Shown here piece by piece: positions 1 through 48,690 of a stretch of DNA of 64,000 bases. The stretch covers positions 69,492 to 133,491 of IMG/VR virus record IMGVR_UViG_3300006139_000004; one strand, 5' to 3'. The number at the start of each line of letters is the position of its first letter. Within the stretch, counting starts at the first letter, position 1. Origin of the DNA: a virus (lineage: Duplodnaviria > Caudoviricetes). The notes below the pieces were generated by a model. The model had not been told where the DNA came from. It ran no database searches and saw only the letters and a list, made by a program, of their open reading frames with translations. A program made the position numbers and the translations under genes.

Positions 1-2
1 GT

Positions 3-1439: not shown

Positions 1440-1450
1440 GTTAAAATGCA

Positions 1451-1714
1451 ATGGTGAGATTTAAAACGAAAGAGATTGATAGTTATTATGCTGCCAATTC
1501 AATTTTGAATTTCATTGATTATGCCGAATCTAATTTGCATAACATTGGCAGATATAATGGCTCATTATCATTATACCGCAAATGTTTGTATATTAGACGG
1601 GAAGATTCACTGTTTTATAAGTATGGAGAAGATAATACTGGCGATATTCAAAAATTAAAACAATTCATGCGTAGATGTTACCGTGAAATTAATCTGTGGA
1701 AGAAGGTATTTTGA
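1451..1714 (+). CDS. Hypothetical protein
   Basis: ORF in co-oriented gene run. Confidence 0.5.
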   Translation: MVRFKTKEIDSYYAANSILNFIDYAESNLHNIGRYNGSLSLYRKCLYIRREDSLFYKYGEDNTGDIQKLKQFMRRCYREINLWKKVF

Positions 1715-1715
1715 A

Positions 1716-2078
1716 ATGATTTATACCACATATTTTGCAAAACTGAAATCGTTACCTAAAGATATTGTGCCAATTAGCATTTGTGGCAAGGCTCCGAATA
1801 ACTACAATGGCCTCCAGTATAAAAAACTTGCACCAAAATATGATTTCTTTATGAAATGGAAAGAGAATCATGATAACGACTATTATATCTGTTGTTTTGA
1901 TAATCAAGTTCTTTCTGTGCTTAATCCTACACAGGTAGTTGCTGATTTAACTGCAATGGCAGCAGGACGTGATGTTGCTTTAGTATGCTATGAAAGGCCC
2001 AGAGATTTTTGCCATAGACATTTGGTAGCAGAATGGTTGCAAAAGAATGGCTATAATGTCCAAGAATGGAGTGCCTAA
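1716..2078 (+). CDS. DUF488-family protein
   Basis: MIYTTYFA start, YKKLAP, LVCYERPRDFCHRHLVAEWL (CYE...CHR motif). Confidence 0.7.
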   Translation: MIYTTYFAKLKSLPKDIVPISICGKAPNNYNGLQYKKLAPKYDFFMKWKENHDNDYYICCFDNQVLSVLNPTQVVADLTAMAAGRDVALVCYERPRDFCHRHLVAEWLQKNGYNVQEWSA

Positions 2079-2390
2079 ATGGGAGAAAATAAAAGTAGTG
2101 TTTTATACTATAATGGTAGGCCACTTAATATAAGTGAAATGCCTCCCATAACGTTTGATTCATGTGTAGATGGTGGTGATATAATCGGCACTTTTCCACA
2201 AAATAGAAATTGTTCATTTACAGCAACATTCAAACATTTAAAAATGAGCCGCAAGAAATTTGTTCATAATCTAATAAAACAAGGTTATTCTAAAAAAGTG
2301 GCTAAACAGTTGGCGTGGTATTGTAATGGAAAAGGGATTCCTTATGGTGCTGCTAACAATTTAATAGCTTTGGGTTTATCTGTGAGGTGA
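2079..2390 (+). CDS. Hypothetical protein
   Basis: Abuts both neighbours; GGAG upstream. Confidence 0.55.
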   Translation: MGENKSSVLYYNGRPLNISEMPPITFDSCVDGGDIIGTFPQNRNCSFTATFKHLKMSRKKFVHNLIKQGYSKKVAKQLAWYCNGKGIPYGAANNLIALGLSVR

Positions 2391-2926
2391 TTGGAATTTT
2401 AGAACTATACAAATATACTGATAAAGAAATTGACCAGCTTGTTAGGTCTATTGTAATTCTTACTGATACCAGAGAACAGAAGAACCAACATATTCTTGAT
2501 TGGTTTGATAAAAAGAAAATTCCCCATAAGACAAAAGCATTGTCAAATGGAGATTATAGTTTTTATGTTCCTGCTAATCCTGATCTGAATATTGATAGAG
2601 ATTTGTTCTTTGATAAAGAAATTATGGTAGAACGTAAAGGATCACTGGAGGAACTAAGCGGCAATCTTTCACAGCAGCGGGCAAGGTTTGAGGAAGAGAT
2701 GGCTACATATCCGGGCAAGAAGTATTTGTTAGTTGAGAACGCAAATTATCAAGATATTATCACGGGGAACTATGATACAAAGTTTTCAGCAAAAGCATAT
2801 CTTGCAAGCCTTCATACATTTAACCATCGTTATGATCTTCAGATGATGTTCATGCCTGATCCACAGTATTCAGGATACTTTCTGTACGGAGTGTTCACAT
2901 ATTTTCTCAGAAAAATTTTGCGGTAA
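2387..2926 (+). CDS. ERCC4/XPF-domain nuclease
   Basis: DTREQ, GDYS, VERKGSLEEL motifs. Confidence 0.85.
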   Translation: MIGILELYKYTDKEIDQLVRSIVILTDTREQKNQHILDWFDKKKIPHKTKALSNGDYSFYVPANPDLNIDRDLFFDKEIMVERKGSLEELSGNLSQQRARFEEEMATYPGKKYLLVENANYQDIITGNYDTKFSAKAYLASLHTFNHRYDLQMMFMPDPQYSGYFLYGVFTYFLRKILR

Positions 2927-5226
<2,300 letters not shown>

Positions 5227-5231
5227 AAGGC

Positions 5232-5259
5232 GAGGACGTGCGCTAAAACACACGTCCTC
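5232..5259. terminator. Hairpin terminator between convergent genes
   Basis: GAGGACGTG / CACGTCCTC stem; T-tract on - strand. Confidence 0.65.
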
Positions 5260-5269
5260 ATCAAGTAAA

Positions 5270-5563
5270 TTATTTCTTTTTCTCCGTATCAGCAACGGGT
5301 GTTGATTCAGGCTCGTCAAGGGAAATCCCTAATTTCTGAGCAATTTCCTCATTGCTCATTCCAGCCTCTTTTGCTTTTGAAATAAGGGCTTTCAGGCCAG
5401 CAGCTTTTGATGCACGTGGCTTTGGATTGAGAATGGTATTTTTCTTTGCCTCTAATTTTTGAATAGCGTCCTTATGTCCAGCAATCTTTTTGTCAATCTC
5501 GGCAATACGTTCTTCTGCTGGGCGGCGAACTAACTTGCGCTGTTTGTTTTCGGCTTCTGCCAT
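5270..5563 (-). CDS. Counter-oriented small basic coiled-coil protein (moron-like)
   Basis: AAGGAG RBS; own promoter and terminator; coiled coil then EEIAQKLG. Confidence 0.75.
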   Translation of the reverse strand: MAEAENKQRKLVRRPAEERIAEIDKKIAGHKDAIQKLEAKKNTILNPKPRASKAAGLKALISKAKEAGMSNEEIAQKLGISLDEPESTPVADTEKKK

Positions 5564-5599
5564 TATAGATCACTCCTTATCTCAAAATATGGCATTTGA

Positions 5600-5628
5600 A
5601 TTATAACACACTTCTTTTAATTTGTAAA
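5600..5628 (-). promoter_or_regulatory. Sigma-A promoter for 5270-5563
   Basis: - strand TTTACA-17 nt-TATAAT with extended TG. Confidence 0.7.
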
Positions 5629-5648
5629 TATGAAAGGTGAAAAATTTA

Positions 5649-6766
5649 ATGGGAGAATACACTTATACCAATGAGGACTTGATTAAAATGCAATCACGTC
5701 CTTTTAATACAAAGCTGCAAGTAACAACTGCAAAGTTCCTTGAGTTTTGTCAAAAGACTGAATATAATGTTTCCCTCTCATTTTCGGGGGGGCAGATAGT
5801 TCAGTTTTGTTAGATATGTTTGCAAAGTTTTGGTCATTGCATCGTGAACAGCATGGTAATAAACCCTTGCTTGTTATTTATGCAAATACAAGCAACGAAT
5901 TTGCGTCTATGCCAAAACACGTTAAATTCTTTTGCGAATATATTGAAAACAAATATGATATAAAAATTGATTTGCACATTGTACGAAGCAAGATTACTTT
6001 CTTTGATGTTGTAAAAACTGAAGGGTATCCAGTGGCAAGCAAGAAAGTTGCTCGAATGATCCGTGACGTAAAGGAATTTCTTGATGAAAGAGGTTTGAAA
6101 TATGAGGACGATATTGAACCGTATCTTGATCAGGGAATTGAAACAGCAAACTATTTGCGCTCTATTAACTGTCCTGCGACTATCGTATTAAGACTTTCTG
6201 GATACACCAGAGATAACAACATCTCAAAAACATGGTCAATTCCAAAGAAATGGAGATTTTTAATCAATGCGCCATTTCCAATTAGTGAACATTGTTGTGA
6301 TATTCTTAAAAAGCAGCCGATTAAACTTGTTCAAAAGGAAGTAAAAGCTAATCCTATTTATGGGACTTTAGCCGAAGATAGTCAAATGCGGCGAAATGCT
6401 TACTTAAAAACAGGCTGCAATGCTTTTAAAGATGGTCATGGTAAGTCAACTCCTATGGGATTTTGGACTCGACAGGATATATTAAGATACCTACATGATT
6501 TTAATATTCCCATTGCACCTCCATATGGCGAGATAGTTCAACTTGAAAATGGTAAATTTGAGTTTACCAAAGAACATAATACAGGATGTAAATTATGCTT
6601 GTTTGGTTGTCATTTAGAGAAAGAGCCAAATCGTATTCAGCGTTTAGCTGATATTGAGCCAAACACTTATAAGTTCGTGATGAAAAGTCGTGAGGAAGGT
6701 GGTCTTGGTTATCGTGAAGTAATGGATTATTTAGGAATACCTTATGAAAACAAAGGAGATACATGA
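5649..6766 (+). pseudogene. PAPS-reductase-family (PP-loop, Fe-S) protein, frameshifted at G7 tract 5786-5792
   Basis: ATG 5649 frame reads ...SLSFSGG; one more G gives SFSGGADSSVLLD joined to ORF 5807-6766 with CC and GCKLC motifs. Confidence 0.8.
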
Positions 6767-7325
6767 AAAGAGTTTTAACAGTTACAATCGCTTTTTAGCT
6801 TTAATATTTGGCATTGTGGTGGGTCTGATAACGACTCAAGAAAACAAGGTCGAAGAAGTGCAACCGATTCAATCAAGTGAGAAATGTCAATTAGTTCATA
6901 TTGATTCAACTATTCCTGTAATAGAACCTTTCTATACCACAATAGCAAATCATATTACAGAGAACGAACGTGAAACGCTTGCACGACTTGTATATCTGGA
7001 GGCCAGAGGACAATCTTATCTTGGTCAAAAGGCGGTTGTAGAAGTTGTATTGAATAGAGTATTGAGTGATGAATTCCCTAACACGATTGACGATGTAATA
7101 TATCAAAAGAATCAGTTTTCTCCTGCAAAATACATTGAAACAACTACTCCAACTCAAATTCAATATGACGTAGTTGATGAAGTTTTATCTGAGATTTATC
7201 CAGTTTTGAATACAAATGTGCTGTTCTTTTCAACGAAACAATATAATGATTTGCTCTATAAAAAGATTGGTGATCATTATTTTTGTTATTCTACAAAATC
7301 TTATGAAAAACAGAAAGGAAACTAA
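6763..7325 (+). CDS. SleB/CwlJ-like cell wall hydrolase (Hydrolase_2), apparent frameshift at T5 6792-6796
   Basis: LARLVYLEARG, VVLNRV, FPNTI, YQKNQFSP, IGDHYF; ATG 6763 has GGAG and an ATGA overlap. Confidence 0.8.
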
Positions 7326-7330
7326 CAACA

Positions 7331-7519
7331 ATGAAGCGCAATAATTATCCCAAGCGTAAAAACTCCGAGCAGATGGATGAGCCAAAGAAAGTCGTTAAGA
7401 TCAGTTGCATGGAGTGCGGGAGTTCTCATGGAACTATGCGAAAGATTAACGATCATGGCAAGAGAGGGTATCTTTGTGAGTATTGTTTTGCCGACTATCA
7501 GGCTGACAATGAATCCTAA
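7331..7519 (+). CDS. Small Zn-ribbon protein
   Basis: CMEC...CEYC; AAGGA RBS. Confidence 0.55.
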   Translation: MKRNNYPKRKNSEQMDEPKKVVKISCMECGSSHGTMRKINDHGKRGYLCEYCFADYQADNES

Positions 7520-7535
7520 TAACAATAAATACAAC
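7519..7535 (+). repeat. Leader motif copy 2 (before thyX RBS)
   Basis: ATAACAATAAATACAAC. Confidence 0.7.
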
Positions 7536-7553
7536 AATATAGGAGGCTGATTT

Positions 7554-8240
7554 ATGAAAGTTGTTTCCCCGGCATTTGATATTCTTACACCTATTGATGG
7601 TATTGAAATTTTGAAAACCATTGAGACAGTAGGCCGCACTTGCTATAAGAGTGAAGATAAAATCACTGATGATTCTTGTGTTAATTTTGTACAGGGCATT
7701 ATCAATCGTGGACATGAGGCTGTAATTGAACACTACAACATTACTGTTCGGCTGACAAATGATCGAGGCGTTTCCCATGAGGAAGTACGTCACCGTATTG
7801 CCAGTTATGCTCAAGAGTCTACACGGTATTGTAATTATGCCAAGGATAAATTCGGTAATGAGATTACATATATCGACATTCGGGGCGGCATGGAACTCGA
7901 TCCAAAGGTTAGCAAGTTGGATGTTGTCATTCAGTCTCAAATCTATGATGAGTGGGTAGAGGCTTGTTTAGATGCAGAGAAGCATTACAACAAAATGATT
8001 TCGCTTGGTGCTACACCTCAGATTGCTCGAAGCGTTCTCAACAACTCTACCAAGACCGAAATTTGCATCACTATGAATATCAGGGAGTGGAGGCATTTCT
8101 TTGACTTACGTTGTTCTCCCGCAGCACATCCGCAGATGAGAGAGATTGCCATTATGCTCCTGAAGGCGTTTAAGACGATGATTCCTGTTGTCTTTGATGA
8201 TCTGTACAAAAAGTATGTGACAGATGCCAAGACGGAGTAA
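7554..8240 (+). CDS. thyX: Flavin-dependent thymidylate synthase
   Basis: GHEAVIEH, RHRIASYAQESTRY, AHPQMRE. Confidence 0.95.
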   Translation: MKVVSPAFDILTPIDGIEILKTIETVGRTCYKSEDKITDDSCVNFVQGIINRGHEAVIEHYNITVRLTNDRGVSHEEVRHRIASYAQESTRYCNYAKDKFGNEITYIDIRGGMELDPKVSKLDVVIQSQIYDEWVEACLDAEKHYNKMISLGATPQIARSVLNNSTKTEICITMNIREWRHFFDLRCSPAAHPQMREIAIMLLKAFKTMIPVVFDDLYKKYVTDAKTE

Positions 8241-8745
8241 CAGATATATTGAGTGTGGGGATTACTACAAAATTGAATTGTATTATCCCCGCACCAATAG
8301 GGTATGTGATTACGCTCTTATTTCCAAAAGTGATAAAGAGATAGCAGAAAAAATTTTTTGGAGAAAGACAGAATATGGCTATGCCAGAGGCAAAAATCCA
8401 TCAACAGGCAAAGATGTTTTATTACATAAACACATTACTCAAACAACAAAAGAAACAGTAATTGATCACATCAATAGAAACAAACTTGATTGTCGCCGTT
8501 CAAACATGAGGATTGCTGATAGTCAAATCAATTCTTTGAACAGAAATCCTCCAAGAAACTCTTTGACTGGATATAAAGGTGTTTCGTTTGATGTGAGAAG
8601 TGGTAAATACAAGGCGTACATTAAAATTGATAGAAAGCAATTTAATCTTGGACTATTTGACACTCCAGAAAGAGCATATCAAGAACGAATGGATTTTGAA
8701 AGCAAATTAATGTATTGCCTAAGTAAAAATTGTAAGGGGGCATGA
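8224..8745 (+). mobile_element. Free-standing HNH-AP2 homing endonuclease
   Basis: DHINRNKLDCRRSNMR (HNH) plus TGYKGVSF...YKAYI...NLGLFDTPERA (AP2). Confidence 0.85.
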
Positions 8746-8746
8746 A

Positions 8747-9286
8747 ATGAAAGTAATTTTGATTTCCGGGAAGGCTCGACATGGCAAGGATACTCTTGCA
8801 GGAATGTTTAAAGATTATCTTGAAGATGAGGGTTATCGTGTGCTGATTGCACATTATGGCGATTTGGTTAAGTACGTCTGTGAGAAATTCTTTGATTGGG
8901 ATGGCAATAAAGACGAGGCTGGCAGAACTCTTTTACAGTATGTAGGTACAGATATTGTTCGTAAACAGAATGAAGATTTTTGGGCGAACTTTATCAAAGA
9001 CATTCTGACGATGTTTAGCCATGAATGGGACTATGTTCTTATTCCTGATACAAGGTTTGTTAATGAGGTAGAGTGTTTCAATGGGGACTTTGATTCAAGT
9101 CTTGTACGTATCTACCGTCCAAACTACGACTCTGGCCTGACACCGCAGCAGTTATCACATCCTTCCGAAACTGCTCTTGATGATTATAAGTATGATTGTT
9201 ACGTAGTTAATGATGGCGGTCTGCAAGACCTAAGAAATAAAGTCCCGGAAATTTTAAAGACTATCGGAGGTCTAAATGCGGGATAA
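8747..9286 (+). CDS. Deoxynucleoside-monophosphate kinase-like P-loop protein
   Basis: SGKARHGKDT, RTLLQYVGTD, DTRFVNE, HPSET. Confidence 0.75.
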   Translation: MKVILISGKARHGKDTLAGMFKDYLEDEGYRVLIAHYGDLVKYVCEKFFDWDGNKDEAGRTLLQYVGTDIVRKQNEDFWANFIKDILTMFSHEWDYVLIPDTRFVNEVECFNGDFDSSLVRIYRPNYDSGLTPQQLSHPSETALDDYKYDCYVVNDGGLQDLRNKVPEILKTIGGLNAG

Positions 9287-9815
9287 GAGAATCATTCTGT
9301 GTGATGCAGATGATACTATTGAGAATCTGTGTCAGATATGGGTAACATATCTCAATAGAATGTATGGAACGACTGTACATAGTAGTGAGATTGTTGATTG
9401 GAATGTAAGTCTATTTTTTCCATCACTGACAAAAGAACAGGTTTATGATCCGATTTTCAATAAGAATTTTTGGAAAGAAATCAATCCTATTGATGGCTGT
9501 TATAAGGTTCTTGAAGAAATTAACAAGCGAGATGAATTGTATATCATCACAGCAACCAACTATCAAACTTGTGATACAAAGATTGAAAGAATACTTGAAA
9601 TGTATCCGTTTCTCAAATGGTCGCAATTCATTATTACAGAAAGAAAGCAATTAGTGTATGGTGACTGGTTGATTGATGATGGGGTACACAACTTTGATGG
9701 CGGTGTTTATAAAGGAATTTTAATGAGTCAACCTCATAACAAAAACTTTAATGCTGAAGAAAATGGTCTTATTCGAGTTCATGGATGGGATGAAATCAGC
9801 AAAATTCTACTTTAA
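9276..9815 (+). CDS. 5'(3')-deoxyribonucleotidase (NT5C, HAD)
   Basis: DADDT, YIITA, LIDDG, QPHN. Confidence 0.8.
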   Translation: MRDKRIILCDADDTIENLCQIWVTYLNRMYGTTVHSSEIVDWNVSLFFPSLTKEQVYDPIFNKNFWKEINPIDGCYKVLEEINKRDELYIITATNYQTCDTKIERILEMYPFLKWSQFIITERKQLVYGDWLIDDGVHNFDGGVYKGILMSQPHNKNFNAEENGLIRVHGWDEISKILL

Positions 9816-9833
9816 CAAATTGGGAGGAACATT

Positions 9834-10271
9834 ATGAATTATATGGAAATGACAGGAGATTTGTTTGCTGTCCCACAGGGTTATTACCTTGCTCATTGTA
9901 TCTCTGGTGACTTCTCTCTTGGTGCCGGAATTGCAAAACAGTTCGATGAAGTTTATAATATGCGCTTTAAGTTGTTTAGGGACTATCCTTTTGAAGCAAA
10001 TGAAAAGTATGGATATGTAGGCAAGGCTCTCTTAGTGGACAATGTATTTAATCTTGTTACTAAGCCAAGACATTATCATCGTCCTGATTATGATACATTG
10101 CTTGATACCATCATTGATATGAGGGATCAATGTGAAAATCTAAATATTACTAAGTTGGCAATGCCTAAGATCGGTTCTGGCCTTGACAGGCTGGATTGGG
10201 AGAAAGTCAAAGAAATCATTCAGGATGTGTTTGATGACTCTGATATTGAAATCTTGATTTGTAGTCTGTAA
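9834..10271 (+). CDS. TARG1/OARD1-like macrodomain ADP-ribosylhydrolase
   Basis: GDLF, LAHCISGD, GAGIA, NLVTK, AMPKIGSGLDRLDW; TARG1 catalytic Lys and Asp positions present. Confidence 0.9.
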   Translation: MNYMEMTGDLFAVPQGYYLAHCISGDFSLGAGIAKQFDEVYNMRFKLFRDYPFEANEKYGYVGKALLVDNVFNLVTKPRHYHRPDYDTLLDTIIDMRDQCENLNITKLAMPKIGSGLDRLDWEKVKEIIQDVFDDSDIEILICSL

Positions 10272-10283
10272 AGAGGAATTGCC

Positions 10284-11501
10284 ATGACAGAGTATAAACC
10301 CCGATATTTAGTCATGGTTACTGCGTCTGCAAACAATAATAAGTATTATCGTCAAATTCCTAATGGTGATACATGGATTGCTGAATACGGTAGAGTAGGC
10401 AGCAATCCGCAGCGCAGAACTTATCCTATGAGTCAATGGGAGTCAAAGTACAAAGAGAAAATTAAAAAAGGATACGTTGATCAGACCGATTTAGCAGAAG
10501 ATTTAATGCAAGTAGAAAAGTCAAAGCAAAATAACAAGTATAAGGAAATTGAGAATAGGTCTATTGCTGAGATTGTAGAACGTCTACAAAACATGGCACG
10601 AAAAGCCATTAGTGATAACTATACTATCTCATCGAATAAAGTTACACAAGCAATGGTCGATGAAGCACAAAACATTCTAACAAGTTTGCTTGATGTGAAA
10701 GATGTTAGTAAGTTTAACGATATTCTATTAAAGTTGTTTACCACAATTCCACGTAAAATGAGTAATGTAAAATCGTTTCTCGCAATATCTGAAAATGATT
10801 TTGCAAGTATCATTGATAAAGAACAGAACTTGCTTGATGTTATGAGTGGTCAGGTTGTTCAACATCAAGTTATTGATGAAACTCCTGAAGAAGTCAAAAA
10901 GCAAGATTGTACCATTCTTGAACAACTTGGTCTTGAATTTGATGAATGTGACAACAAGGATATTGCAATTATTAAAACTGCTTTAGGTTCTTGTTCTGAT
11001 AAATTTTATCGTGCATGGAAAGTCAAAAATCTTAGAACACAGAAACGATATGATCAGTTCATTAAAGACAACAATATCAAGAATACTAAATTACTCTTTC
11101 ATGGGAGTCGCAATGAGAATTGGTGGTCAATTATTAATAGCGGCTTAGTCTTAAAACCTACCAATGCTGTTATTACTGGCAAGATGTTTGGCTATGGAAT
11201 TTACTACGCTCCTAAAGCAAGAAAGTCTTTAGGTTATACGAGCCTTTCAGGTAGCTATTGGGCGAAAGGAAATTCCAATTCAGGCTTTATGGCTCTTATG
11301 GATGTAGCATATGGCAAGCCTTATGATGTACATTCATTTGATAGTAAATATTATAATTTCAATTACGATGAACTGCAACGTGTTTGTAAAGGAGCAAATT
11401 GTTTACACGCACACGAAGGAAGTATGCTTCGTAACGATGAAATTATAGTATATAAAGAAGATCAGTGTACTATTCGGTATCTGATTGAACTGAAAAATTA
11501 G
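10284..11501 (+). CDS. PARP-like ADP-ribosyltransferase (WGR + helical + catalytic)
   Basis: NNNKYY..YGRVG..KKGY (WGR); LFTTIP helical domain; LLFHGS, GKMFGYGIYYA..KSLGY, NDEIIVY. Confidence 0.92.
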   Translation: MTEYKPRYLVMVTASANNNKYYRQIPNGDTWIAEYGRVGSNPQRRTYPMSQWESKYKEKIKKGYVDQTDLAEDLMQVEKSKQNNKYKEIENRSIAEIVERLQNMARKAISDNYTISSNKVTQAMVDEAQNILTSLLDVKDVSKFNDILLKLFTTIPRKMSNVKSFLAISENDFASIIDKEQNLLDVMSGQVVQHQVIDETPEEVKKQDCTILEQLGLEFDECDNKDIAIIKTALGSCSDKFYRAWKVKNLRTQKRYDQFIKDNNIKNTKLLFHGSRNENWWSIINSGLVLKPTNAVITGKMFGYGIYYAPKARKSLGYTSLSGSYWAKGNSNSGFMALMDVAYGKPYDVHSFDSKYYNFNYDELQRVCKGANCLHAHEGSMLRNDEIIVYKEDQCTIRYLIELKN

Positions 11502-11518
11502 AATGAAGAGGTGGTTCA

Positions 11519-13783
11519 ATGACTGTAATAAAGCGTGATGGCAGAGAAGTTGAGTTTGACAAAACAAAAATTAGTGATGCAATTTGCAAAGCGATTGTAG
11601 AGGTTGATGGCTCTTTGGCAGATGATACAAAGCAACTTGCATATGATATTGCTGATCGTATTGAGTCAAAAAATAAAGGTATTAATTTGACAGTTGAGCA
11701 GATTCAAGATATGGTTGAAATTCAACTTATGCTTAGTTATCGCAAAGACATTGCAAAGGCATATATCTTGTATCGAAATGAAAGAACTAAAATCCGTGAT
11801 AGGAATAGCAATCTTGTCAAGAAAATCATGGTACGTGCTGATTCCAAAGTCAATTTTCACTCAAATGCGAATGTCGATGAATCCTCATTCTCTGGACGTG
11901 AAAAAGAGGCTTCAGCCGATATTGGCAAAATGATCGCACTGGACTTTGATGGCCTGTCTCAAGATGTTGCCAATGCTCATAAGGAGATGTTGGTATATCA
12001 GCACGATCTTGAAAAGGCAATCTATGGTATTCATAACTGTCTTAATCTGAACTTCCAAGAGATTTTTACCTATGGTTTTAGGACACGCAATGGCGATGTA
12101 AGACCGCCTTCCTCTTTTAGCACAGCTTGTCAGTTGTATGCTGTAGCGTTCCAGTGTCAAAGTCAAGTACAGTTTGGCGGTGTTGGTAGTATTCATACCG
12201 ACCTTGATCTTGCACCATTCGTAAAACTTAGTTTTTATAAACATTTTGCAGATGGCATTGTGTACTTGGATCATTATAGTAGAGAAGATGCAGACTGGAT
12301 TTTAGATCAGTGGAAGAACAGTAAGCGGTCTATTGATGATCCGTATTTTAAGAAGTCGTTTAATGAGACTGTTTATCAGTATGCTATAGATATGTTGGAG
12401 CGTGAGGGTAAACAGGCCGCACAGGGGCTTTACCACAATCTGAATACACTTGAATCCAGACAGGGTTCACAGGTTCCCTTTACAAGTATCAATCTTGGAC
12501 GTGATACCAGTTTTGAGGGACGGTTGGTAACTAAGTGGATCATGGAGGCCAGCATTGACGGCATTGGACAGCATCACCTTACAAGTATCTTCCCCATTAG
12601 CATTTTCCAGTATAAGCAAGGCACTAATGCTAATGTTGGTGATCCAAACTATGATCTCAAGCAGCTTGCTCTTAAATCTATGAGTAAGCGTATTTATCCT
12701 AACTGGTGTAACTGCGACTGGTCACAGGCTCATGAGGATGAGAATAATCCTGATACATACTTTGCTACGATGGGTTGTCGCACATTGATTGGGTATGATC
12801 GGCATGGTCTTGGTTATATTCGTCAAGGACGTGGTAATAACGTTCCTAACACAATTATTCTTCCTAAGTTGGGTATTGAGTTTGGTATTTGTCTTGGCAA
12901 GCGTGATAAGCCTGATTTGGATGGGTTCTGGAAGGCTTTTGAGGAAACCTTAAAGCTGACAGAACGTGGGCTTTTGGAGCGTTTTGAAATCATGATACGG
13001 CAATCTCCTAAGTCTGCGCCATTTATGTATCAGAACAATACAATTCAGGATGCAAGGAATTGTGAAAAGGACGTGTTTAATGCGCTGAAACACAATACAC
13101 TGGCGATTGGATATATTGGTATTGCTGAAATGTGTCAAGCACTTTTTGGTAAGAATCATGTTCATGATGCAGACGTTCATGCTTTTGCCCTGTCTGTTGT
13201 TAAGCGTATTAATGAGTATGCTGCTGAAGCATCAGAGCGCAATAATCTAAACTTCTCTTGCTATGCTACTCCTGCCGAGGGTCTTTGCCGCACAGCATTG
13301 ATGGGACTCCGTGATCAGTATGGCATTATTGAAAATGTCACATCACATGAATACCTGACAAATTCTCATCATGTTCCTGTTTGGGAAAAGGTGTCTATCC
13401 AGCAGAAGTTGGAGTGTGAGGCTCCGTTCTGTAAGTATCCTACTGGCGGCTGTATTACTTATGTTGAATTGGATAGTACATTTGTAAAGAATACAAAAGC
13501 TGTTGAGGATATTATTGATTATGCGTTTAAGGTTCTTGATATTCCGTATCTGGCCTTTAACTTTCCTATTGATAGTTGTTTGAATTGTGGCTATCAGGGC
13601 GAGTTCAATGATAGGTGTCCTCAGTGTGGCAGCGAAAACATTCAGCAGCTTCGCCGTGTGACAGGGTATCTTACGACAGACTATCGTAATTTCAATGATG
13701 GCAAACAACGTGAAGTGCTTGAACGTGAGCAGCACAGCAAATATACTCCACAAATTAATCATGACGGATCAGATGAATCTTAA
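11519..13783 (+). CDS. nrdD: Anaerobic ribonucleoside-triphosphate reductase
   Basis: ATP cone (VIKRDG), MGCR, TPAEGL, CxxC..CPxC, RRVTGYL glycyl radical. Confidence 0.97.
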   Translation: MTVIKRDGREVEFDKTKISDAICKAIVEVDGSLADDTKQLAYDIADRIESKNKGINLTVEQIQDMVEIQLMLSYRKDIAKAYILYRNERTKIRDRNSNLVKKIMVRADSKVNFHSNANVDESSFSGREKEASADIGKMIALDFDGLSQDVANAHKEMLVYQHDLEKAIYGIHNCLNLNFQEIFTYGFRTRNGDVRPPSSFSTACQLYAVAFQCQSQVQFGGVGSIHTDLDLAPFVKLSFYKHFADGIVYLDHYSREDADWILDQWKNSKRSIDDPYFKKSFNETVYQYAIDMLEREGKQAAQGLYHNLNTLESRQGSQVPFTSINLGRDTSFEGRLVTKWIMEASIDGIGQHHLTSIFPISIFQYKQGTNANVGDPNYDLKQLALKSMSKRIYPNWCNCDWSQAHEDENNPDTYFATMGCRTLIGYDRHGLGYIRQGRGNNVPNTIILPKLGIEFGICLGKRDKPDLDGFWKAFEETLKLTERGLLERFEIMIRQSPKSAPFMYQNNTIQDARNCEKDVFNALKHNTLAIGYIGIAEMCQALFGKNHVHDADVHAFALSVVKRINEYAAEASERNNLNFSCYATPAEGLCRTALMGLRDQYGIIENVTSHEYLTNSHHVPVWEKVSIQQKLECEAPFCKYPTGGCITYVELDSTFVKNTKAVEDIIDYAFKVLDIPYLAFNFPIDSCLNCGYQGEFNDRCPQCGSENIQQLRRVTGYLTTDYRNFNDGKQREVLEREQHSKYTPQINHDGSDES

Positions 13784-14324
13784 TTTAAGATACGCTGGTA
13801 TTGAATATGACGATGTAGCAAATGGTATTGGCTTGGGGGCAGTATTTTTTACTCAAGGCTGTCCCCACCAATGTCCAGAGTGCCAAAATCCCCAAACGTG
13901 GAGTAAGGATGGTGGCATGAAATTCACTGATTCAGTATTAGATCAACTAATTCAATACTACTATGATGTTCCATATGCCAGCAGATTAACACTTTCAGGT
14001 GGTGATCCATTAGCAAATCCTGAATTAACTTTTAATGTAATTCTCAAATTCAAATCTGTTTTTCCATATAAAAAGATTTGGTTATATACGGGTTACAATT
14101 TTGAAGATTTTGCTTTTAATGTTCCTACAACGGACAACGAACGTTTAATTCAAAAAATTGTTCGGCTATGCAATGTAATTGTCGATGGCGAATTTAAAAT
14201 TGACAAAAGAGATATTACATTGCAATTTATAGGTTCAAGCAATCAAAGAATTATTGATGTGCAAAAATCTTTAAAAGCCAATCAAACAGTTTTATGGAAT
14301 GACATGAATGGAGGCAATACTTGA
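13773..14324 (+). CDS. nrdG: NrdD activating radical-SAM enzyme
   Basis: GCPHQCPECQN, LSGGDP, GSSNQR. Confidence 0.93.
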   Translation: MNLNLRYAGIEYDDVANGIGLGAVFFTQGCPHQCPECQNPQTWSKDGGMKFTDSVLDQLIQYYYDVPYASRLTLSGGDPLANPELTFNVILKFKSVFPYKKIWLYTGYNFEDFAFNVPTTDNERLIQKIVRLCNVIVDGEFKIDKRDITLQFIGSSNQRIIDVQKSLKANQTVLWNDMNGGNT

Positions 14325-14473
14325 AATATATTCTTGAAGTCCAATTTGAAACAGATGACCTTGATCCAGAAGAAAGTGAACTGGTTGAGGATATTCGTCA
14401 TGATGTAGAAGATGTAATTGCAAATTATTCTATAACAGACAATCCAAAAGTAAAAATTAGGGAGGGTAACTAA
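14321..14473 (+). CDS. Small acidic protein (50 aa), not in ORF track
   Basis: GGAGG + TTG; overlaps both neighbours. Confidence 0.55.
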   Translation: MKYILEVQFETDDLDPEESELVEDIRHDVEDVIANYSITDNPKVKIREGN

Positions 14474-15018
14474 TGCTTGTTGTAAATCTTTTTGGTGCGC
14501 CCGGAGCAGGAAAGTCTACTGGTGCAGCGTATATCTTCTCGCAACTCAAGATGGCTGGTATTAATGCAGAACTGGTTACGGAATTTGCCAAGGATAAAGT
14601 TTGGGAAGAGAGCAAGGCCGTGTTCCAGAATCAAGCCTATATCTTTGGTAAACAGTATTTCCGTATCAGTCGCCTTCAGGATAAGGTTGATGTTGTAGTG
14701 ACTGACTCCCCCATCATTCTGTCACCTTTCTATGCTAACGATCCTGTGCTTGGTGATGAGTTTGATACCCTTTGTACTAAGGTGTTTAACTCTTATGACT
14801 CAATGAATGTGTTTGTCAACCGTGTTAAACCTTACAATCCCGTTGGACGCTTCCAGACAGAAAGCGAGAGCGACCAGTTGGCGGCTGATCTGTTTGCGTT
14901 CCTGAATAAGCATGGTATCGTTTGCCGTCACTATGATGGTAGTCTTGATGGGTATAAAGTTCTCATTGCAGATATTATGGAGAGGCTTAAATGTCCCGGT
15001 AGAAGCTATGGCATATAA
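14473..15018 (+). CDS. NadR/AAA_28-like P-loop kinase
   Basis: GAPGAGKST, EFAKD, VVTDSP, GRFQ. Confidence 0.7.
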   Translation: MLVVNLFGAPGAGKSTGAAYIFSQLKMAGINAELVTEFAKDKVWEESKAVFQNQAYIFGKQYFRISRLQDKVDVVVTDSPIILSPFYANDPVLGDEFDTLCTKVFNSYDSMNVFVNRVKPYNPVGRFQTESESDQLAADLFAFLNKHGIVCRHYDGSLDGYKVLIADIMERLKCPGRSYGI

Positions 15019-15031
15019 CAATAAATACAAC
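15015..15031 (+). repeat. Leader motif copy 3 (before folD RBS)
   Basis: ATAACAATAAATACAAC. Confidence 0.7.
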
Positions 15032-15044
15032 TGCGGAGGATTGA

Positions 15045-15763
15045 ATGGAGTATATTGATTGCAAGTCTATTGCTCAGAAATGGAAAGATGAAATTAAAGC
15101 ACATGGTATAAAAGCTAAATTTTATGTACTTCAAGTTGGTGATAATCCTGCATCAACCGCCTATATAAAAGGCAAGATTAAGGATGCTCAAGAGGTTGGG
15201 TTTGAATGTGTACATGTTCATATTCCAGCTACAACACGTGAACAGGTCTATCATGAAGTCAGTATGAAACTTGAAGAACTGAAATACAGCATGGAAGCAG
15301 ACGGTGTTATTCTCCAGTTGCCTTTACCCTTTAGCCTGACGATGGATGATTTTAAAGATCATATGAATCCTGATAAAGATGTAGACGGGTTCTTAACTGA
15401 TTCTCCTTTCGCCCCTTGTACACCTGACGGTATCATGCAAATGCTACAGTATGTTTATGCCACTCCTTTACGGATCGCAAGCAACTTGAGGAACTTGCTA
15501 AGAAAGCAGACATTTTTGTAAGCGCAGTTGGTAAACCAGATTTTATAAGCAGCAGTCTTTTCAAAGAAGGAGCAGTAGTTATTGATGTAGGCATTAACCG
15601 TACTGAAGATAAATTGTGCGGAGATATATCTATTGACAAAACCAACACAAAAAATATCTTGATAACTCCTGTTCCGGGCGGTGTTGGCCTTTTAACAAGA
15701 GCAATGCTCATGCAGCACATTCTTAGAGCATATGAAAAATATCACATTTGGAGGGCTATATGA
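15045..15763 (+). pseudogene. folD: Methylene-THF dehydrogenase/cyclohydrolase with internal deletion and frameshift
   Basis: First frame: QLPLP, KDVDG, PCTP. Second frame from ~15437: ANATVCLCHS, SAVGKP, IDVGINR, TPVPGGVG, stop 15763. GRS segment absent. Confidence 0.88.
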
Positions 15764-16266
15764 ATAAGTTTGAACGTGTATCTGAAACAGAATATAACAA
15801 GGTATTAACAAGTGATTGTACTGCCAAAAACGGTGTAATTTGTGTTGCACCTTATGAGAATATTAAACTTCCACATAGAGCCACAGTGCGGAGTGCTGGG
15901 TATGATTTCTTTTCTCCTATCTCTTTTAAATTAAAGCCGGGACAGACTATTAAGGTTCCTACATTTGTCAAGGCTCAATTAAGCCACGGCAGAGTTCTCA
16001 TGCTTTATCCCCGTAGCAGCTATGGGTTTAAATATCGGATGCAACTTGACAATACTGTTGGTGTCGTTGACGGTGACTATTATAACAATGAAAGTAATGA
16101 GGGGCATATTTTCATTAAGATCACAAATGATAGCAAGACAGGCAAGACACTTGAGGTTAATGTTGGAGATGCTTTTGCACAAGGCATTATCATGGGATAT
16201 GATGTTACAGACAACGATGACGCTACCGCTATCCGAACTGGTGGAATAGGTTCAACATCGGTATGA
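15760..16266 (+). CDS. dut: Trimeric dUTPase
   Basis: SAGYD, PRSS, GVVDGDYY, AQG, RTGGIGST. Confidence 0.93.
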   Translation: MNKFERVSETEYNKVLTSDCTAKNGVICVAPYENIKLPHRATVRSAGYDFFSPISFKLKPGQTIKVPTFVKAQLSHGRVLMLYPRSSYGFKYRMQLDNTVGVVDGDYYNNESNEGHIFIKITNDSKTGKTLEVNVGDAFAQGIIMGYDVTDNDDATAIRTGGIGSTSV

Positions 16267-16577
16267 ATAATTTTCAATACATAACAGAAACCTATAAATC
16301 AAACTGTTTCATTGAGGCCGCTAAAGCAAAACTCTTTGGCGGCTCCAATGTAAAAATATATTTCTGCAAGCCAAGATTTCATAATGGCAAATTTCAAATG
16401 TGTCATTTTATGTGGACTGATGGAGTGCATGATTATGATTTTTCGGATCACGAAGAAGATGAATTGCCGTGGTATAGGTGTTTTCTATTCGATGGTCAGA
16501 TTAGACAGTTTGAGAAAGGTTTTGCTGAACGATATACAAAATATAGGAACAGAAAGAAGGTAAGACATGACGCTTGA
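16263..16577 (+). CDS. Hypothetical protein
   Basis: Overlapping operon ORF. Confidence 0.55.
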   Translation: MNNFQYITETYKSNCFIEAAKAKLFGGSNVKIYFCKPRFHNGKFQMCHFMWTDGVHDYDFSDHEEDELPWYRCFLFDGQIRQFEKGFAERYTKYRNRKKVRHDA

Positions 16578-16986
16578 AGATGCAATCCAGCATTGCTATG
16601 AATCCATTGATCGCATGAAAGGTGATGGAACTTGCTTAGAGTGTATTGCTGAACATGAACAACTTGTTAAATGGCTCGAAGAATTAAATGAGCATCATAT
16701 GATTCAAGTTGGCAAAGAAATATGTTGTCTGAGAAAGACCAACGATAGCTTTGAATTAGTGACAGCAGCCATTACCTCTGTACGTATTGGAAAGAATGGT
16801 ATAACGGCGACTACAAATAAGTTTAAAGGTACACTGGACGTAAATGAAATTATTTCAAATACAAAAATCTTATATAAAACTCCACGTATGATCCTTGTTC
16901 AAGAATTTTTCTTTGATGCTTATGGTCTGAAGGAAAAAGCACAGAGATGGATTGAAAATCGTGGTTGGGAATATCAGGAGGCATAA
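16567..16986 (+). CDS. Hypothetical protein
   Basis: MTLEDAIQHC...EHEQLVKWLEEL, an N-terminus I recognise from phage proteins. Confidence 0.6.
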   Translation: MTLEDAIQHCYESIDRMKGDGTCLECIAEHEQLVKWLEELNEHHMIQVGKEICCLRKTNDSFELVTAAITSVRIGKNGITATTNKFKGTLDVNEIISNTKILYKTPRMILVQEFFFDAYGLKEKAQRWIENRGWEYQEA

Positions 16987-17330
16987 TGAAAACAAATCAT
17001 AAATTTTGTATATGGCTCATTAGTATTGTCGTTGCTATAAGCATTTGCTGGCAATTACTTGAAGTGTTAATTTATGGTGAAATTCAACCAAGAATTGTTG
17101 ATGATATTATTGGCTTACTTTGGATTGGTGCAATATGTTTTGCTTATAAATTCAAAGAAATTGAATTGAAACGAATGTGGAAGAAATGTAAAGAAGTCCA
17201 TATAAATAATCCTTGGTGGTTAAGAAAACCTGTTCCTCCTGAAACTTATACTGAAGGATATATAAGTGATCGTATTTGGTTGCAATCTGAACGTGAACTT
17301 GGGAATAAAGGTGGATTTACCAAAACGTGA
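16986..17330 (+). CDS. Small two-TM membrane protein
   Basis: Two hydrophobic segments; GGAGG RBS. Confidence 0.55.
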   Translation: MKTNHKFCIWLISIVVAISICWQLLEVLIYGEIQPRIVDDIIGLLWIGAICFAYKFKEIELKRMWKKCKEVHINNPWWLRKPVPPETYTEGYISDRIWLQSERELGNKGGFTKT

Positions 17331-17368
17331 TTGATGATAGGAATAAATTGTAAAGAGGTGATTGATTT

Positions 17369-17587
17369 ATAGATGAAGCAGTAGCATTATCACGTCAAAT
17401 CCCATTTTGGGAGAAATACACTTTGTCGATTGATGAAGCAGCAGCTTATTTCAGAATTGGCAGAGACAAATTATACAAAATCGTTTCTGAAAATAAAGAC
17501 GCAGATTTCATTTTGTGGAATGGAACGAGAGCGCAAATTAAACGTAAGAAATTTGAAAACTACATTGATAAGTTAAATATCTTGTAA
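17369..17587 (+). CDS. xis: Tn916-type excisionase, no ATG/GTG/TTG at the expected start; not in ORF track
   Basis: IPFWEKYTLSIDEAAAYFRIGRDKL...WNGTRAQIKRKKFE; GAGGTG 8 nt before ATA. Confidence 0.85.
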   Translation: MDEAVALSRQIPFWEKYTLSIDEAAAYFRIGRDKLYKIVSENKDADFILWNGTRAQIKRKKFENYIDKLNIL

Positions 17588-17593
17588 TTTGCC

Positions 17594-17622
17594 TTGAATC
17601 AAGACTCTCGATGTGGTATAAT
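17594..17622 (+). promoter_or_regulatory. Integrase promoter overlapped by an inverted repeat (17601-17645)
   Basis: TTGAAT-17 nt-TATAAT with TG; AAGAC..GATGTGGT / ACCACATC..GTCTT. Confidence 0.7.
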
Positions 17623-17670
17623 TGAAGTAACCACATCAGGGTCTTTTTTCGGATAAGAAAGGAGTGTACA

Positions 17671-18957
17671 ATGTCCGAAAAAAGAACTGAAACAAAACGG
17701 CGTGATTCAAAAGGCAGAGTTTTAAGGAACGGTGAAACTCAACGATCTGATGGAATGTATATGTATCGCTTTAACGATGCAGGAGGTGTTAGACGTACAA
17801 TTTATAGTTGGCGGCTTGTAGAAACTGATAAATTACCGCCACACAAACGGGCTTGTGAACCCTTGCGAGAGATTGAAAAACAACTTACACGTGATACGGA
17901 TGATGGGATTCAAAGTTTTGTAGCAAACAAGAAAACGCTTAATGACTTCTATGAAAAGTACATGAGCATGAAGAAAGAATTGAAACCCTCTACACGATTT
18001 ACCTATGCAAACACTTATGACAACTGGATCAGAGATGAACTTGGTTTTCGTCCAATCGGTTCAATCAAGTACAGTGATATTAAGCAATTCTATCTTTCTT
18101 TGTATTTTGATAAGGAAATGAAACCTAACACGATCCATGCTGTCAATACCATTTTACACCCTATTTTTACTCTGGCAGTACGTGATGGGTATATCAGGTC
18201 TAATCCAGCTTATCAAGTTTATGCGGAACTCAAAAAGCAGAATGGATGGGGACAGGATAAACGCCACGCATTGACAGAACAGCAGCAAGAAGTATTTGTC
18301 GATTTCCTTCGTAATTCATCCGTGTATCACAAATGGCTTGGGCTGATCACATTTTTACTTGGAACTGGTTGTCGTATAGGTGAGGCTATTGGCTTACGGT
18401 GGGAGGACTGTGACTTTCAAGAGAACATCATTTCTATTAATCACAGTGTTTCTTATACTGAAGTCGAAAAAGGTAAAGGACGCAGGTTCTATATATCTAC
18501 TCCAAAAACCGATGCTGGCACAAGAGACATTCCTATGTTCAAGGAAGTGAAACGTGCCTTGCTGAATGAACGTCTTAGACAAATGCAGACAGGATTCAGT
18601 CAGCAGGAAATTGACGGTTACTCTGGCTTTGTTTTTGTCGGCAACAGGGGAACTATCCATCATCCTACCAGTATCAATCAAACTCTCAAGCGGATTATCA
18701 ATGCCTATAACACTATGGAAGTTGACCGGGCGAAAAAAGAAAGGCGAGAGCCTATTTTGCTCCCGCACTTTTCAGTCCACAATTTACGTCATACATTCTG
18801 CACACGCATTTGCGAAAACGAAACTAACCTGAAGATCATTCAAGAAATCATGGGTCATGCCAATATTTCTACTACGATGGATGTATACAACGAAGCCACT
18901 ATGGAGCAGAAGAAAAAGTGTTTTGCCAACCTTGAAGGCAAGATTAAGATTGGTTGA
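17671..18957 (+). CDS. int: Tyrosine integrase, Tn916-Int-like
   Basis: RRDSKGRVL arm-binding domain, TGCRIGE, TPKT, HNLRHTF, MGH, TMDVY. Confidence 0.95.
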   Translation: MSEKRTETKRRDSKGRVLRNGETQRSDGMYMYRFNDAGGVRRTIYSWRLVETDKLPPHKRACEPLREIEKQLTRDTDDGIQSFVANKKTLNDFYEKYMSMKKELKPSTRFTYANTYDNWIRDELGFRPIGSIKYSDIKQFYLSLYFDKEMKPNTIHAVNTILHPIFTLAVRDGYIRSNPAYQVYAELKKQNGWGQDKRHALTEQQQEVFVDFLRNSSVYHKWLGLITFLLGTGCRIGEAIGLRWEDCDFQENIISINHSVSYTEVEKGKGRRFYISTPKTDAGTRDIPMFKEVKRALLNERLRQMQTGFSQQEIDGYSGFVFVGNRGTIHHPTSINQTLKRIINAYNTMEVDRAKKERREPILLPHFSVHNLRHTFCTRICENETNLKIIQEIMGHANISTTMDVYNEATMEQKKKCFANLEGKIKIG

Positions 18958-19290
18958 ATTTACACCAAAACCTACACCATTTCAACCTAATTTCTCAGGA
19001 CGATGTAGGACATGGTAGGAGAATAAAATGTTTCTTCAACCAAAATCACAAAAATGCCTACAAAATAGGGCTGTTTAGAAACTTATCGGCAGTTATAGAA
19101 CGGCAAAGAATATCTTCTTAAATCTGGAAGATATGCAAACGATTTTCCAAAACGGGCTTGAAGTATTACAATAATCGTAGAAAACAGCACAAAACAAGGC
19201 AATTTAGGACAATGACAGTTCAAATGCCAGATATGACATTTTGAATCTTACACCAGTTTTACACCAAATGAAAAAAGACTCGATGTGGTT
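18954..19290. other. Predicted attP: paired TACACCA arm-type repeats flanking a palindromic core 19110-19134
   Basis: TACACCA at 18961, 18973, 19249, 19260; ATATCTTC-9 nt-GAAGATAT in the middle; phage genes on both sides. Confidence 0.65.
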
Positions 19291-19318
19291 TTCAAATTTC
19301 TTACTATCCGTAAAAAAA

Positions 19319-19349
19319 TAGGGGTACAGGCTATAAACCTGTACCCCTA
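19319..19349. terminator. Terminator ending the late operon (possibly bidirectional)
   Basis: TAGGGGTACAGG / CCTGTACCCCTA stem with A/T-rich flanks. Confidence 0.85.
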
Positions 19350-19356
19350 AATTTAT

Positions 19357-19836
19357 TTAAATCAAGAAATCTTCGTCTTTTTCATGTTGCTCATAAACAC
19401 GCTTAATATTTGCGATTGCCATTACTGCCCGGTTATTTTTATAACCCGGATGACTTTCACAAAAATCTTCATATTCATCAATATCATGTAACACATCTAC
19501 AAAATATTCATGTGTATAACAATCGTCACCTTTCATAAGATCAGCATTAAAACGCAAAATACGCTGCCTATGTAAATTTGCATCACGCTCATCGTCTACA
19601 CGGATATGCTCATCCAACCGTTTACGTGTCTCATGTTGCCCTTTTTCTAAAGTATCCAACTTCTTTAAAACATCCCCATTAAAGATACGTCCGATCCAAC
19701 GACCAAAAGCAGACCACGGATTTACCTTAATTGGTGTTACCTCAATCAACGTCATAGCAATAGCCACAATAGCAAGAAGTGTGCCAGTATTTTCAGACAA
19801 CAACTCCTTGATTTCCATAAGGCTCATTCTACACAC
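19357..19836 (-). CDS. Lysis-region membrane-anchored protein
   Basis: N-terminal TM, IKVNPWS, coiled coil. Confidence 0.65.
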   Translation of the reverse strand: MCRMSLMEIKELLSENTGTLLAIVAIAMTLIEVTPIKVNPWSAFGRWIGRIFNGDVLKKLDTLEKGQHETRKRLDEHIRVDDERDANLHRQRILRFNADLMKGDDCYTHEYFVDVLHDIDEYEDFCESHPGYKNNRAVMAIANIKRVYEQHEKDEDFLI

Positions 19837-19863
19837 CTCCTGTCATTATGTTTGTATCCATTG

Positions 19864-48616: not shown

Positions 48617-48690
48617 ATATTTCACCTCCATACCATATAAATAAGCCCTCGCCATTTCTGACGAGGGCTGTTAATTGCTATTGTTTTATC

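Follow-up and report, generated by a model that had tools for sequence, protein, structure and literature searches.

Why does a bacteriophage carry a PARP directly behind a macrodomain protein, and what would the two do together? The question is raised by a virus of the Caudoviricetes (IMG/VR record IMGVR_UViG_3300006139_000004), in which a gene for a 145-aa TARG1-like macrodomain (9834-10271, + strand) is followed after 12 nt by a gene for a 405-aa PARP (10284-11501, + strand). The stretch of DNA that was analysed, here called the window, comprises the 64,000 nucleotides from base 69492 to base 133491, the right half of a complete 133,491-bp record; positions are those of the window unless the genome is named. 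A preliminary description, made from the sequence alone, had proposed that the two proteins form a writer and an eraser of ADP-ribosylation that work in a reversible cycle triggered by DNA breaks. Here, we show that the pairing is not due to chance, that the two genes are strictly co-inherited and that they are placed among genes for ligase, polymerase and nuclease. On this basis we propose, with a probability of roughly 55%, that they constitute an ADP-ribosylation module that is activated by breaks, resets itself and belongs to the machinery with which the phage replicates its DNA and seals nicks.

The writer and the eraser

The 405-aa protein has the WGR-helical-catalytic architecture that had been assigned to it, the motifs FHGS, GIYY and NDEIIVY are all present and the catalytic residues are intact. 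The ADP-ribosyltransferase (ART) domain (aa ~216-405; 10929-11498, + strand) matches Pfam PARP (3e-24, residues 240-404), and its H273, Y307 and E386 align to the HGS, GIYFA and NEYIVY segments of PARP2. No substitution of this H-Y-E triad was seen in 68 close relatives or in 91 representatives with 37-56% identity. The WGR domain (aa ~1-70; 10284-10493, + strand) is recognized by Pfam at 4e-5 (residues 7-68; 24.1 bits against a cut-off of 22) and contains the motifs NNNKYY and Y-G-R-V-G, in which the first position of the WGR motif is Tyr, not Trp; N17, N19, K20, Y22, G36, R37 and G39 of this domain are invariant in the 68 close relatives. As a whole, the protein matches PHROG 23333 (2e-58) and the PARP2 and PARP1 chains of the PDB (phmmer, E ~1e-12). 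Its family is large: a search of a 1.84-billion-protein library returned 3193 clusters at E<=1e-3, and 687 clusters (50% identity) at E<=1e-30.

Between the WGR and ART domains lies a helical domain (HD) of the PARP_reg-like kind (aa ~86-215; 10539-10928, + strand). Of the profiles that had been proposed as a check of the pair, PARP and WGR were matched, Pfam PARP_reg had no match in the 405-aa PARP and the Macro profile stayed under its cut-off in the neighboring protein. The phmmer alignments to the catalytic region (CAT) of PARP1 begin at query residues 120-142. An AlphaFold model built from the 91 aligned representatives (pLDDT 93.6, pTM 0.90) aligns to PARP1/2/3 chains, the comparison that had likewise been called for: its WGR region forms a beta-sheet and a helix at 7-62 and aligns to the PARP1 WGR from residue 549, helices occupy 92-214, and the PARP1/2/3 chains that consist of HD and ART only align from model residue 85-90 on. 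The model thus predicts an autoinhibitory-type helical domain between WGR and ART. An earlier model from 16 close relatives (pLDDT 64) was discarded. By its architecture the protein is a member of the DNA-dependent PARP1/2/3-type family, which is characterized by activation at DNA breaks and synthesis of poly(ADP-ribose) (PAR); the phage protein is predicted to be break-activated and may build such chains. The H-Y-E triad is necessary, but not sufficient, for PAR synthesis; PARP3 and PARP4 carry it and are yet mono-transferases.

Compared with human PARP2/PARP3 and the WGR-HD-ART core of PARP1 (PDB 6x0l, 7aeo, 4dqy), to which its identity is about 20-24%, the phage protein is small, lacks the zinc fingers, the BRCT domain and the N-terminal tail, has a helical domain too diverged for PARP_reg and Tyr for Trp in the WGR motif, and has no known HPF1-like partner. 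The bacterial PARPs of Herpetosiphon aurantiacus and Clostridioides difficile CD160 are likewise compact WGR-helical-catalytic proteins according to PMC5966428 (and Slade et al. 2011 as cited there). The phage PARP fits two further features of bacterial PARPs, as Tyr at the first WGR position is the common bacterial state and members of the Clostridiales clade 1.2 have no Pfam PARP_reg match and a helical domain by modelling (PMC5966428). The assayed bacterial PARPs belong to clades 2.2 and 2.3 and are paired with PARG in their genomes, whereas the phage pairs its PARP with a TARG1-like macrodomain.

For the eraser, the best PDB match is human TARG1/OARD1 (4j5r; phmmer, E 3e-24), with an alignment that covers 139 of the 145 residues (query 6-144 to chain 11-145) and leaves no N- or C-terminal extension. 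The motifs LAHCIS (19-24), LVTK (74-77) and MPKIGSGLD (110-118) stand where they had been described, in a reading frame that ends 12 nt before the PARP gene. K77 and D118 align to the Lys of ITK and the Asp of GLD in 4j5r, which with the +6 offset of the chain correspond to K84 and D125; Lys84 and Asp125 have been named as the catalytic dyad of TARG1 (PMC8120803). Pfam Macro reaches 21.3 bits against a cut-off of 22, and the TARG1 assignment therefore rests on the PDB match. The macrodomain also matches PHROG 335 (6e-25), the macro region of DarG in PADLOC (1e-13, confined to positions 27-142 of a 329-position profile) and DarG of NCBIfam (40.4 bits against an equivalog cut-off of 250), as expected for a protein with a predicted TARG1-like fold. 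It is a predicted ADP-ribosyl hydrolase of the TARG1/OARD1 type. The family matches and the intact catalytic residues of both proteins support a PARP1-3-type writer next to a TARG1-type eraser. Human TARG1/OARD1 (PDB 4j5r, 2l8r) and the TARG1 of Fusobacterium mortiferum (PMC6397177) are likewise minimal macrodomains of ~150 aa. The phage protein is coupled to a PARP in an operon, whereas the F. mortiferum protein is encoded in a polymorphic-toxin-like operon of a genome without a PARP.

The same phage encodes a second macrodomain, of the MacroD type, outside the window (genome 9870-10307, - strand; Pfam Macro 9e-10), which is 48% identical to the PARP-adjacent macrodomains of two relatives (L054 and L055). 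PARG (PF10021 / DUF2263) had no match in the complete 133-kb genome in a search that detected the Deinococcus radiodurans positive control, and neither NUDIX proteins nor a credible ARH were found there. An apparent ADP-ribosylglycohydrolase match (13 bits) in the 2997-aa tape-measure protein (39662-48655, - strand; PhageMin_Tail 5e-20) was rejected as a chance hit that Pfam did not reproduce.

Coupling of the two genes among relatives

Conserved adjacency had been set beforehand as one of the tests on which the proposed pair should stand or fall, and the counts do not refute the pair. A search of IMG/VR seeded with the PARP yielded 80 loci at 56-100% identity, in 75 of which a macrodomain gene lies upstream of the PARP gene, mostly 0-13 nt apart. 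The remaining five (L067, L069, L074, L079 and L082) have no upstream macrodomain match, with a flank too short to judge in L074 and L082. In L067 the macrodomain is found two genes downstream of the PARP, and in L079 the PARP gene is directly preceded by the last part of a gene for an NAD-dependent ligase instead of a macrodomain. The reciprocal search, with an alignment of macrodomains of the window type (type A, see below), gave 80 loci at 54-100% identity, many of them on new contigs, and a PARP gene lies downstream in every one, adjacent in 64 and across an insert of 750-900 nt in 16. The pair is kept together in about 150 related phage contigs and in some chromosomes of Clostridia. Fortuitous adjacency or gene decay was rejected on the grounds of the open frames, the conserved catalytic residues and this coupling in both directions.

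A single macrodomain sequence retrieved only the same species from IMG/VR, PARP representatives at 40% identity retrieved two and zero loci, and a profile-seeded scan returned mostly the same 80. A megablast of the region against GenBank phages gave no match, and hence no close sequenced relative there. In L069 (4077-7215), two diverged WGR-PARP paralogues flank a gene for a 185-aa protein that has no match in Pfam or to the macrodomain profile, and no macrodomain lies within 6 kb.

The spacer between the two genes is a recurrent insertion site. Seven PARP-seeded loci (L029, L031, L036, L066, L072, L077 and L078) have an additional 0.8-0.9 kb at this position, and five of the six inserts scanned with Pfam hold free-standing homing endonuclease genes of the GIY-YIG (NUMOD) kind, which are selfish insertions; the sixth, a 265-aa open reading frame in L077, had no Pfam match.

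The two proteins have also changed together. The identities of macrodomain and PARP correlate across loci (r = 0.82), with the macrodomain diverging faster (mean identity 55% against 70%). On a PARP tree obtained with the quick version of the tree search, the type of eraser is strongly clustered, requiring five changes compared to 26 with shuffled labels. Type A, which includes the macrodomain of the window, keeps the Lys/Asp dyad of TARG1. Type B forms one clade (L038, L048, L051, L053, L060, L076 and about 25 more) in which the Lys is kept and Asn or Gly replaces the Asp (CCGKNG or CCGRGG); across relatives, the catalytic Lys is found in 57/59 and the Asp in 32/59. To judge from these substitutions, type B macrodomains either have an altered mechanism or serve as binders and not as hydrolases. 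In type C, a small nested group, the place of the eraser is taken by a MacroD-like macrodomain (Pfam Macro 3e-9), and this replacement suggests that the PARP needs an adjacent eraser, whichever kind it is.

In other sequenced phages the linkage differs. The PARPs known from Cellulophaga phage phi4:1, Aeromonas phage Aeh1, Xanthomonas phage XacN1 and Klebsiella phage FBKp34 are WGR-PARPs with 25-31% identity over their full length, some of them encoded near ligase or NrdD. The 16 GenBank phage records with a PARP do not overlap with the 28 that match this TARG1-like macrodomain. The macrodomain profile had no match in the 154-aa neighbor of the Cellulophaga PARP or in the 145-aa neighbor of the Klebsiella PARP. 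In Klebsiella phage vB_KpM_FBKp34, a gene annotated as 'putative phosphatase' (L108:1052-1567) encodes a macrodomain (hhalign probability 95.7%) that differs from the window type and lies 2.4 kb upstream of the PARP, which is followed by NrdD there too. A looser linkage of PARP and macrodomain may therefore exist in distant Gram-negative phages.

The setting among replication genes

The neighborhood of the pair was counted in 61 dereplicated loci. A DnaE gene lies within three genes upstream in 38 of them and an ERCC4 nuclease gene at the same distance in 29, while DNA ligase is the first upstream gene in 24, of which 20 are NAD-dependent with a BRCT domain and four ATP-dependent. The recurrent string is DnaE-ERCC4-ligase-macrodomain-PARP, with other flanks varying. 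An ATP-dependent ligase also precedes the pair in a contig of an Aminipila metagenome-assembled genome, and in Cellulophaga phage phi4:1 such a ligase is found two genes past the PARP. Since two ligase families are involved, the link appears to concern the sealing of nicks and not a shared use of NAD+. A search with LigA for sister phages lacking the pair gave only the same species and one distant ligase locus without the pair.

The window phage has the same DnaE-ERCC4-LigA string about 5 kb upstream of the pair, with nucleotide-metabolism genes inserted. Its tightly packed + strand string runs from the end of DnaE through DUF488, ERCC4, ligase, a PAPS-reductase-like gene, a cell-wall hydrolase-like gene, ThyX, an HNH/AP2 homing endonuclease, a deoxynucleoside monophosphate (dNMP) kinase and an NT5C nucleotidase to the macrodomain, PARP, NrdD and NrdG. 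The C-terminal part of the DnaE-type DNA polymerase III alpha subunit (3-944, + strand; Pfam HHH_6) belongs to a gene that begins upstream of the window and was placed in full at genome 67148-70351 by tblastn with the DnaE of relatives; the complete DnaE of a relative matches Pfam DNA_pol3_alpha at 9e-48. The ERCC4-family nuclease (2387-2926, + strand; Pfam ERCC4 2e-10) is followed by the NAD-dependent ligase with its C-terminal BRCT domain (2981-5023, + strand; DNA_ligase_aden 1e-48, OB 2e-26, BRCT 1e-14). Downstream of the pair, the anaerobic ribonucleotide reductase NrdD (11519-13783, + strand; Pfam NRDD 3e-140) starts 17 nt past the PARP stop and is followed by its activase NrdG (13695-14324, + strand; Fer4_12 2e-36).

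Both genes of the pair have their own Shine-Dalgarno sequence on the + strand, GGAGG at 9823-9827 for the macrodomain (8 nt after the NT5C stop and 6 nt before the ATG) and AGAGG at 10272-10276, within the 12-nt spacer, for the PARP. In a consensus scan, the + strand of the two genes and their spacer had no terminator-like site, and shuffled sequence gave promoter-like matches at least as often as this region, where some of them are intragenic. Opposite the two genes there is no credible open reading frame (all <=65 aa), and Rfam had no match in window positions 1-20000. The record carries direct terminal repeats, which indicate that the genome is linear in the virion.

Three other genes of the string were recorded. 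A 131-aa DUF488 protein of the 'active N3a subclade' (1683-2078, + strand; 1e-15) is encoded between the DnaE and ERCC4 genes of the replication string. A protein with a SleB/Hydrolase_2-type cell-wall hydrolase domain and a hydrophobic N-terminal segment (6744-7325) is encoded amid the nucleotide-metabolism genes, with no lysis cassette visible nearby. The HNH_3 + AP2 homing-endonuclease-like gene (8224-8745) stands between thyX, whose stop it overlaps by 17 nt, and the gene of the dNMP kinase. Genes of this family directly follow the PARP gene in several relatives (L036, L060, L073 and L080-L082).

Outside phages, the PARP was found in species-representative genomes of Clostridia (Ruminococcus, Lacrimispora, Oscillospiraceae and others), and a macrodomain adjoins it in 13 of 24 bacterial loci, among them those of Ruminococcus sp. 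YE282 and Lacrimispora amygdalina. Several of these pairs are chromosomal cassettes among housekeeping genes (GluRS, RibD, a V-ATPase subunit, TspO) and not in defence islands; their macrodomains retain a Lys/Asp or Lys/Glu dyad. In Clostridium tagluense and a Paenibacillaceae strain, relatives of the PARP have no macrodomain next to them. In L. amygdalina (L091:5546-8580), the TARG1-like macrodomain and the PARP are followed by a 423-aa ADP-ribosylglycohydrolase (PF03747, 1.5e-35), so that one writer stands with two kinds of eraser, and the three genes adjoin that of a 1789-aa surface protein with SpaA repeats.

Function of the pair and its meaning for prokaryotic PARPs

DNA breaks activate WGR PARPs by causing their helical domain to unfold. 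In the module that we propose, the two genes would be co-transcribed as a writer and eraser pair, and the helical domain would keep the PARP inactive; it would be released once the WGR domain has bound to a nick, a gap or an end of phage DNA that is being replicated or recombined. The activated PARP would then spend NAD+ to ADP-ribosylate itself and nearby proteins, presumably at Asp and Glu given that no HPF1-like cofactor would take part; chains may be formed, and DNA termini may be modified too. The TARG1-like macrodomain would cleave the ester bond at the protein-proximal ribose, removing single units or whole chains in one step, and would in this way reset the sensor and limit the loss of NAD+. 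Precedents exist for each half, as activated DNA causes two bacterial PARPs to attach PAR to themselves (PMC5966428) and a bacterial TARG1 removes both mono- and poly(ADP-ribose) linked to Asp/Glu (PMC6397177), while in human cells PARP1 writes and TARG1 erases DNA ADP-ribosylation at replicating telomeres, according to PMC11102865. The proposal of a DNA-break-triggered cycle for repair gains support from the genomic context, with ligase immediately upstream in 24/61 and DnaE close by in 38/61 loci; DNA-dependent activation, the substrates, the choice between poly- and mono-modification and the reversal by the macrodomain are steps that we infer. Manipulation of the NAD pool, which had also been suggested, finds no support, with neither NUDIX nor PARG in the phage and a ligase partner that can be ATP-dependent.

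Several observations weigh against a replication module of this kind. Unrelated settings in other phages (L009-L014, L076) hold the pair too, and bacterial chromosomes carry it as an autonomous cassette; such a distribution is typical of toxin-antitoxin and defence cassettes as well, and a gene neighborhood points to a process, not to a mechanism. Distant phage PARPs stand without an adjacent macrodomain (Cellulophaga, LR756500, L187, L188, L190), and none is annotated near the PARP of Xanthomonas XacN1. With about 40% of the relatives (type B) lacking the TARG1 Asp, the TARG1 mechanism may not hold throughout the clade. No enrichment of acidic residues was seen in the flexible loops of the PARP, which leaves no conspicuous automodification site, and the PARP clade resembles clade 1.2 (Clostridiales) of PMC5966428 by shared features, not by placement in a tree.

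A more specific form of the proposal, which we put forward tentatively, is that ligase, eraser, PARP, DnaE and ERCC4 may together be a minimal viral counterpart of the eukaryotic surveillance of single-strand breaks and Okazaki nicks by PARP1/2, XRCC1-LIG3 and TARG1. At the replication fork, the PARP would tag nicks or flaps that are still unsealed; the ligase would be recruited or licensed by this tag, with the BRCT domain of the NAD-dependent enzyme as one possible contact, and the eraser would reset the site.

Of the competing explanations, the one that survives best, which we nevertheless consider unlikely, takes the pair as a conflict module: the PARP would be a toxin-like effector, which modifies host proteins for takeover or serves an abortive infection or superinfection exclusion that burns NAD+ on sensing foreign DNA ends, and the macrodomain its immunity protein or antitoxin, as DarG is for DarT. 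Strict co-inheritance of a two-gene cassette with the eraser first, in many unrelated settings that include bacterial chromosomes, is in line with this idea, but the phage pairs lie inside long co-oriented replication operons whose synteny is stable at PARP identities of 56-100%, whereas a faster turnover and other locations are usual for defence and moron cassettes, and the bacterial copies are found among housekeeping genes (GluRS, RibD, V-ATPase) and not in defence islands. Phage toxin-antitoxin pairs of transferase and eraser have been described (ART-ARG and sirtuin-Macro; PMC9503650), but no PADLOC defence model was matched by the PARP, and its conserved WGR-HD apparatus argues for a gated sensor over a constitutive toxin. 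The likeness to DarTG consists of an ADP-ribosyltransferase gene next to a TARG1-like macrodomain gene, and the macrodomain does match the macro region of DarG (PADLOC, 1e-13). The writer, however, is a WGR-HD PARP and not DarT (DUF4433; no PADLOC match), the eraser gene comes first in the phage, and DarG, of ~330 aa, joins its macrodomain to a C-terminal DarT-binding domain, the toxin-binding half that the 145-aa phage macrodomain lacks.

Still more doubtful is that the substrate is nucleic acid. The PARP would then cap the terminal phosphates of nicks or of the two ends of the linear, terminally redundant genome, and the eraser would uncap them before ligation or packaging; the cap might shield ends from host exonucleases or mark them for processing. 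PARP1-3 act on DNA ends and TARG1 takes ADP-ribose off DNA again, according to PMC8053099, PMC8501950 and PMC11102865, although sequence cannot separate DNA from protein targets. The direct terminal repeats would provide a linear virion genome with ends to cap, but an enzyme made after infection cannot guard the incoming ends, and for the copies in bacterial chromosomes there is no linear genome whose ends could be capped; the ligase that directly adjoins the eraser in 24/61 loci would fit uncapping before ligation.

Least probable is an independent counter-defence role, in which the macrodomain would act against DarT-type DNA ADP-ribosylation by the host, as the preliminary description had considered, or against other ARTs, and would lie next to the PARP by chance, since its resemblance to the macro domain of DarG, the removal of DarT-type thymidine ADP-ribose by TARG1 (PMC8501950) and the 28 GenBank phage records with TARG1-like macrodomains and no PARP stand against a PARP that is always downstream of this macrodomain clade (80/80), two proteins that co-diverge and a replacement eraser in the same slot.

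The enzyme families and the existence of phage PARPs are known; the conserved operon, the swapping of erasers and the ligase and polymerase context are new. PARPs of Aeromonas phage Aeh1 and Cellulophaga phage phi4:1 were listed in 2014, when viral TARG1-like macrodomains were mentioned as well (PMC4245714), and jumbo-phage PARPs were listed again later (PMC7824862). A survey of viral NAD+ and ADP-ribose systems in 2022 described ART-ARG, ART-Dmd and sirtuin-Macro pairs in phages and no PARP-macrodomain pair (PMC9503650), a gap that may be explained by the absence of overlap between PARP and TARG1-like records among GenBank phages. A published description of the coupled pair was not found in the literature searched, for which full text was partial, and this is not proof of novelty.

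The break-activated module that we favor bears on a family with little known biology, as only two prokaryotic PARPs have been assayed, in vitro, neither with a known physiological role (PMC8120803, PMC5966428). The relatives of the window PARP form a large and coherent clade. In its sampled part, the PARP is almost always tied to an eraser of its own and mostly found among genes of replication and nick sealing, and the clade thus gives a testable hypothesis for the role of prokaryotic PARPs in vivo. Ruminococcus sp. YE282 and L. amygdalina, which both have the pair, are cultivable entry points. The clade also indicates that not all phage macrodomains are aimed at soluble ADP-ribose signals or at host defence, the default reading of PMC9503650. 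If the link to ligase is true, it bears on the origin of PARP-dependent break repair in eukaryotes, and if the pair does take part in surveillance of nicks at the fork, the eukaryotic DNA-damage PARP system would have a functioning prokaryotic equivalent, and a candidate for its evolutionary source, in the large phages of Firmicutes.

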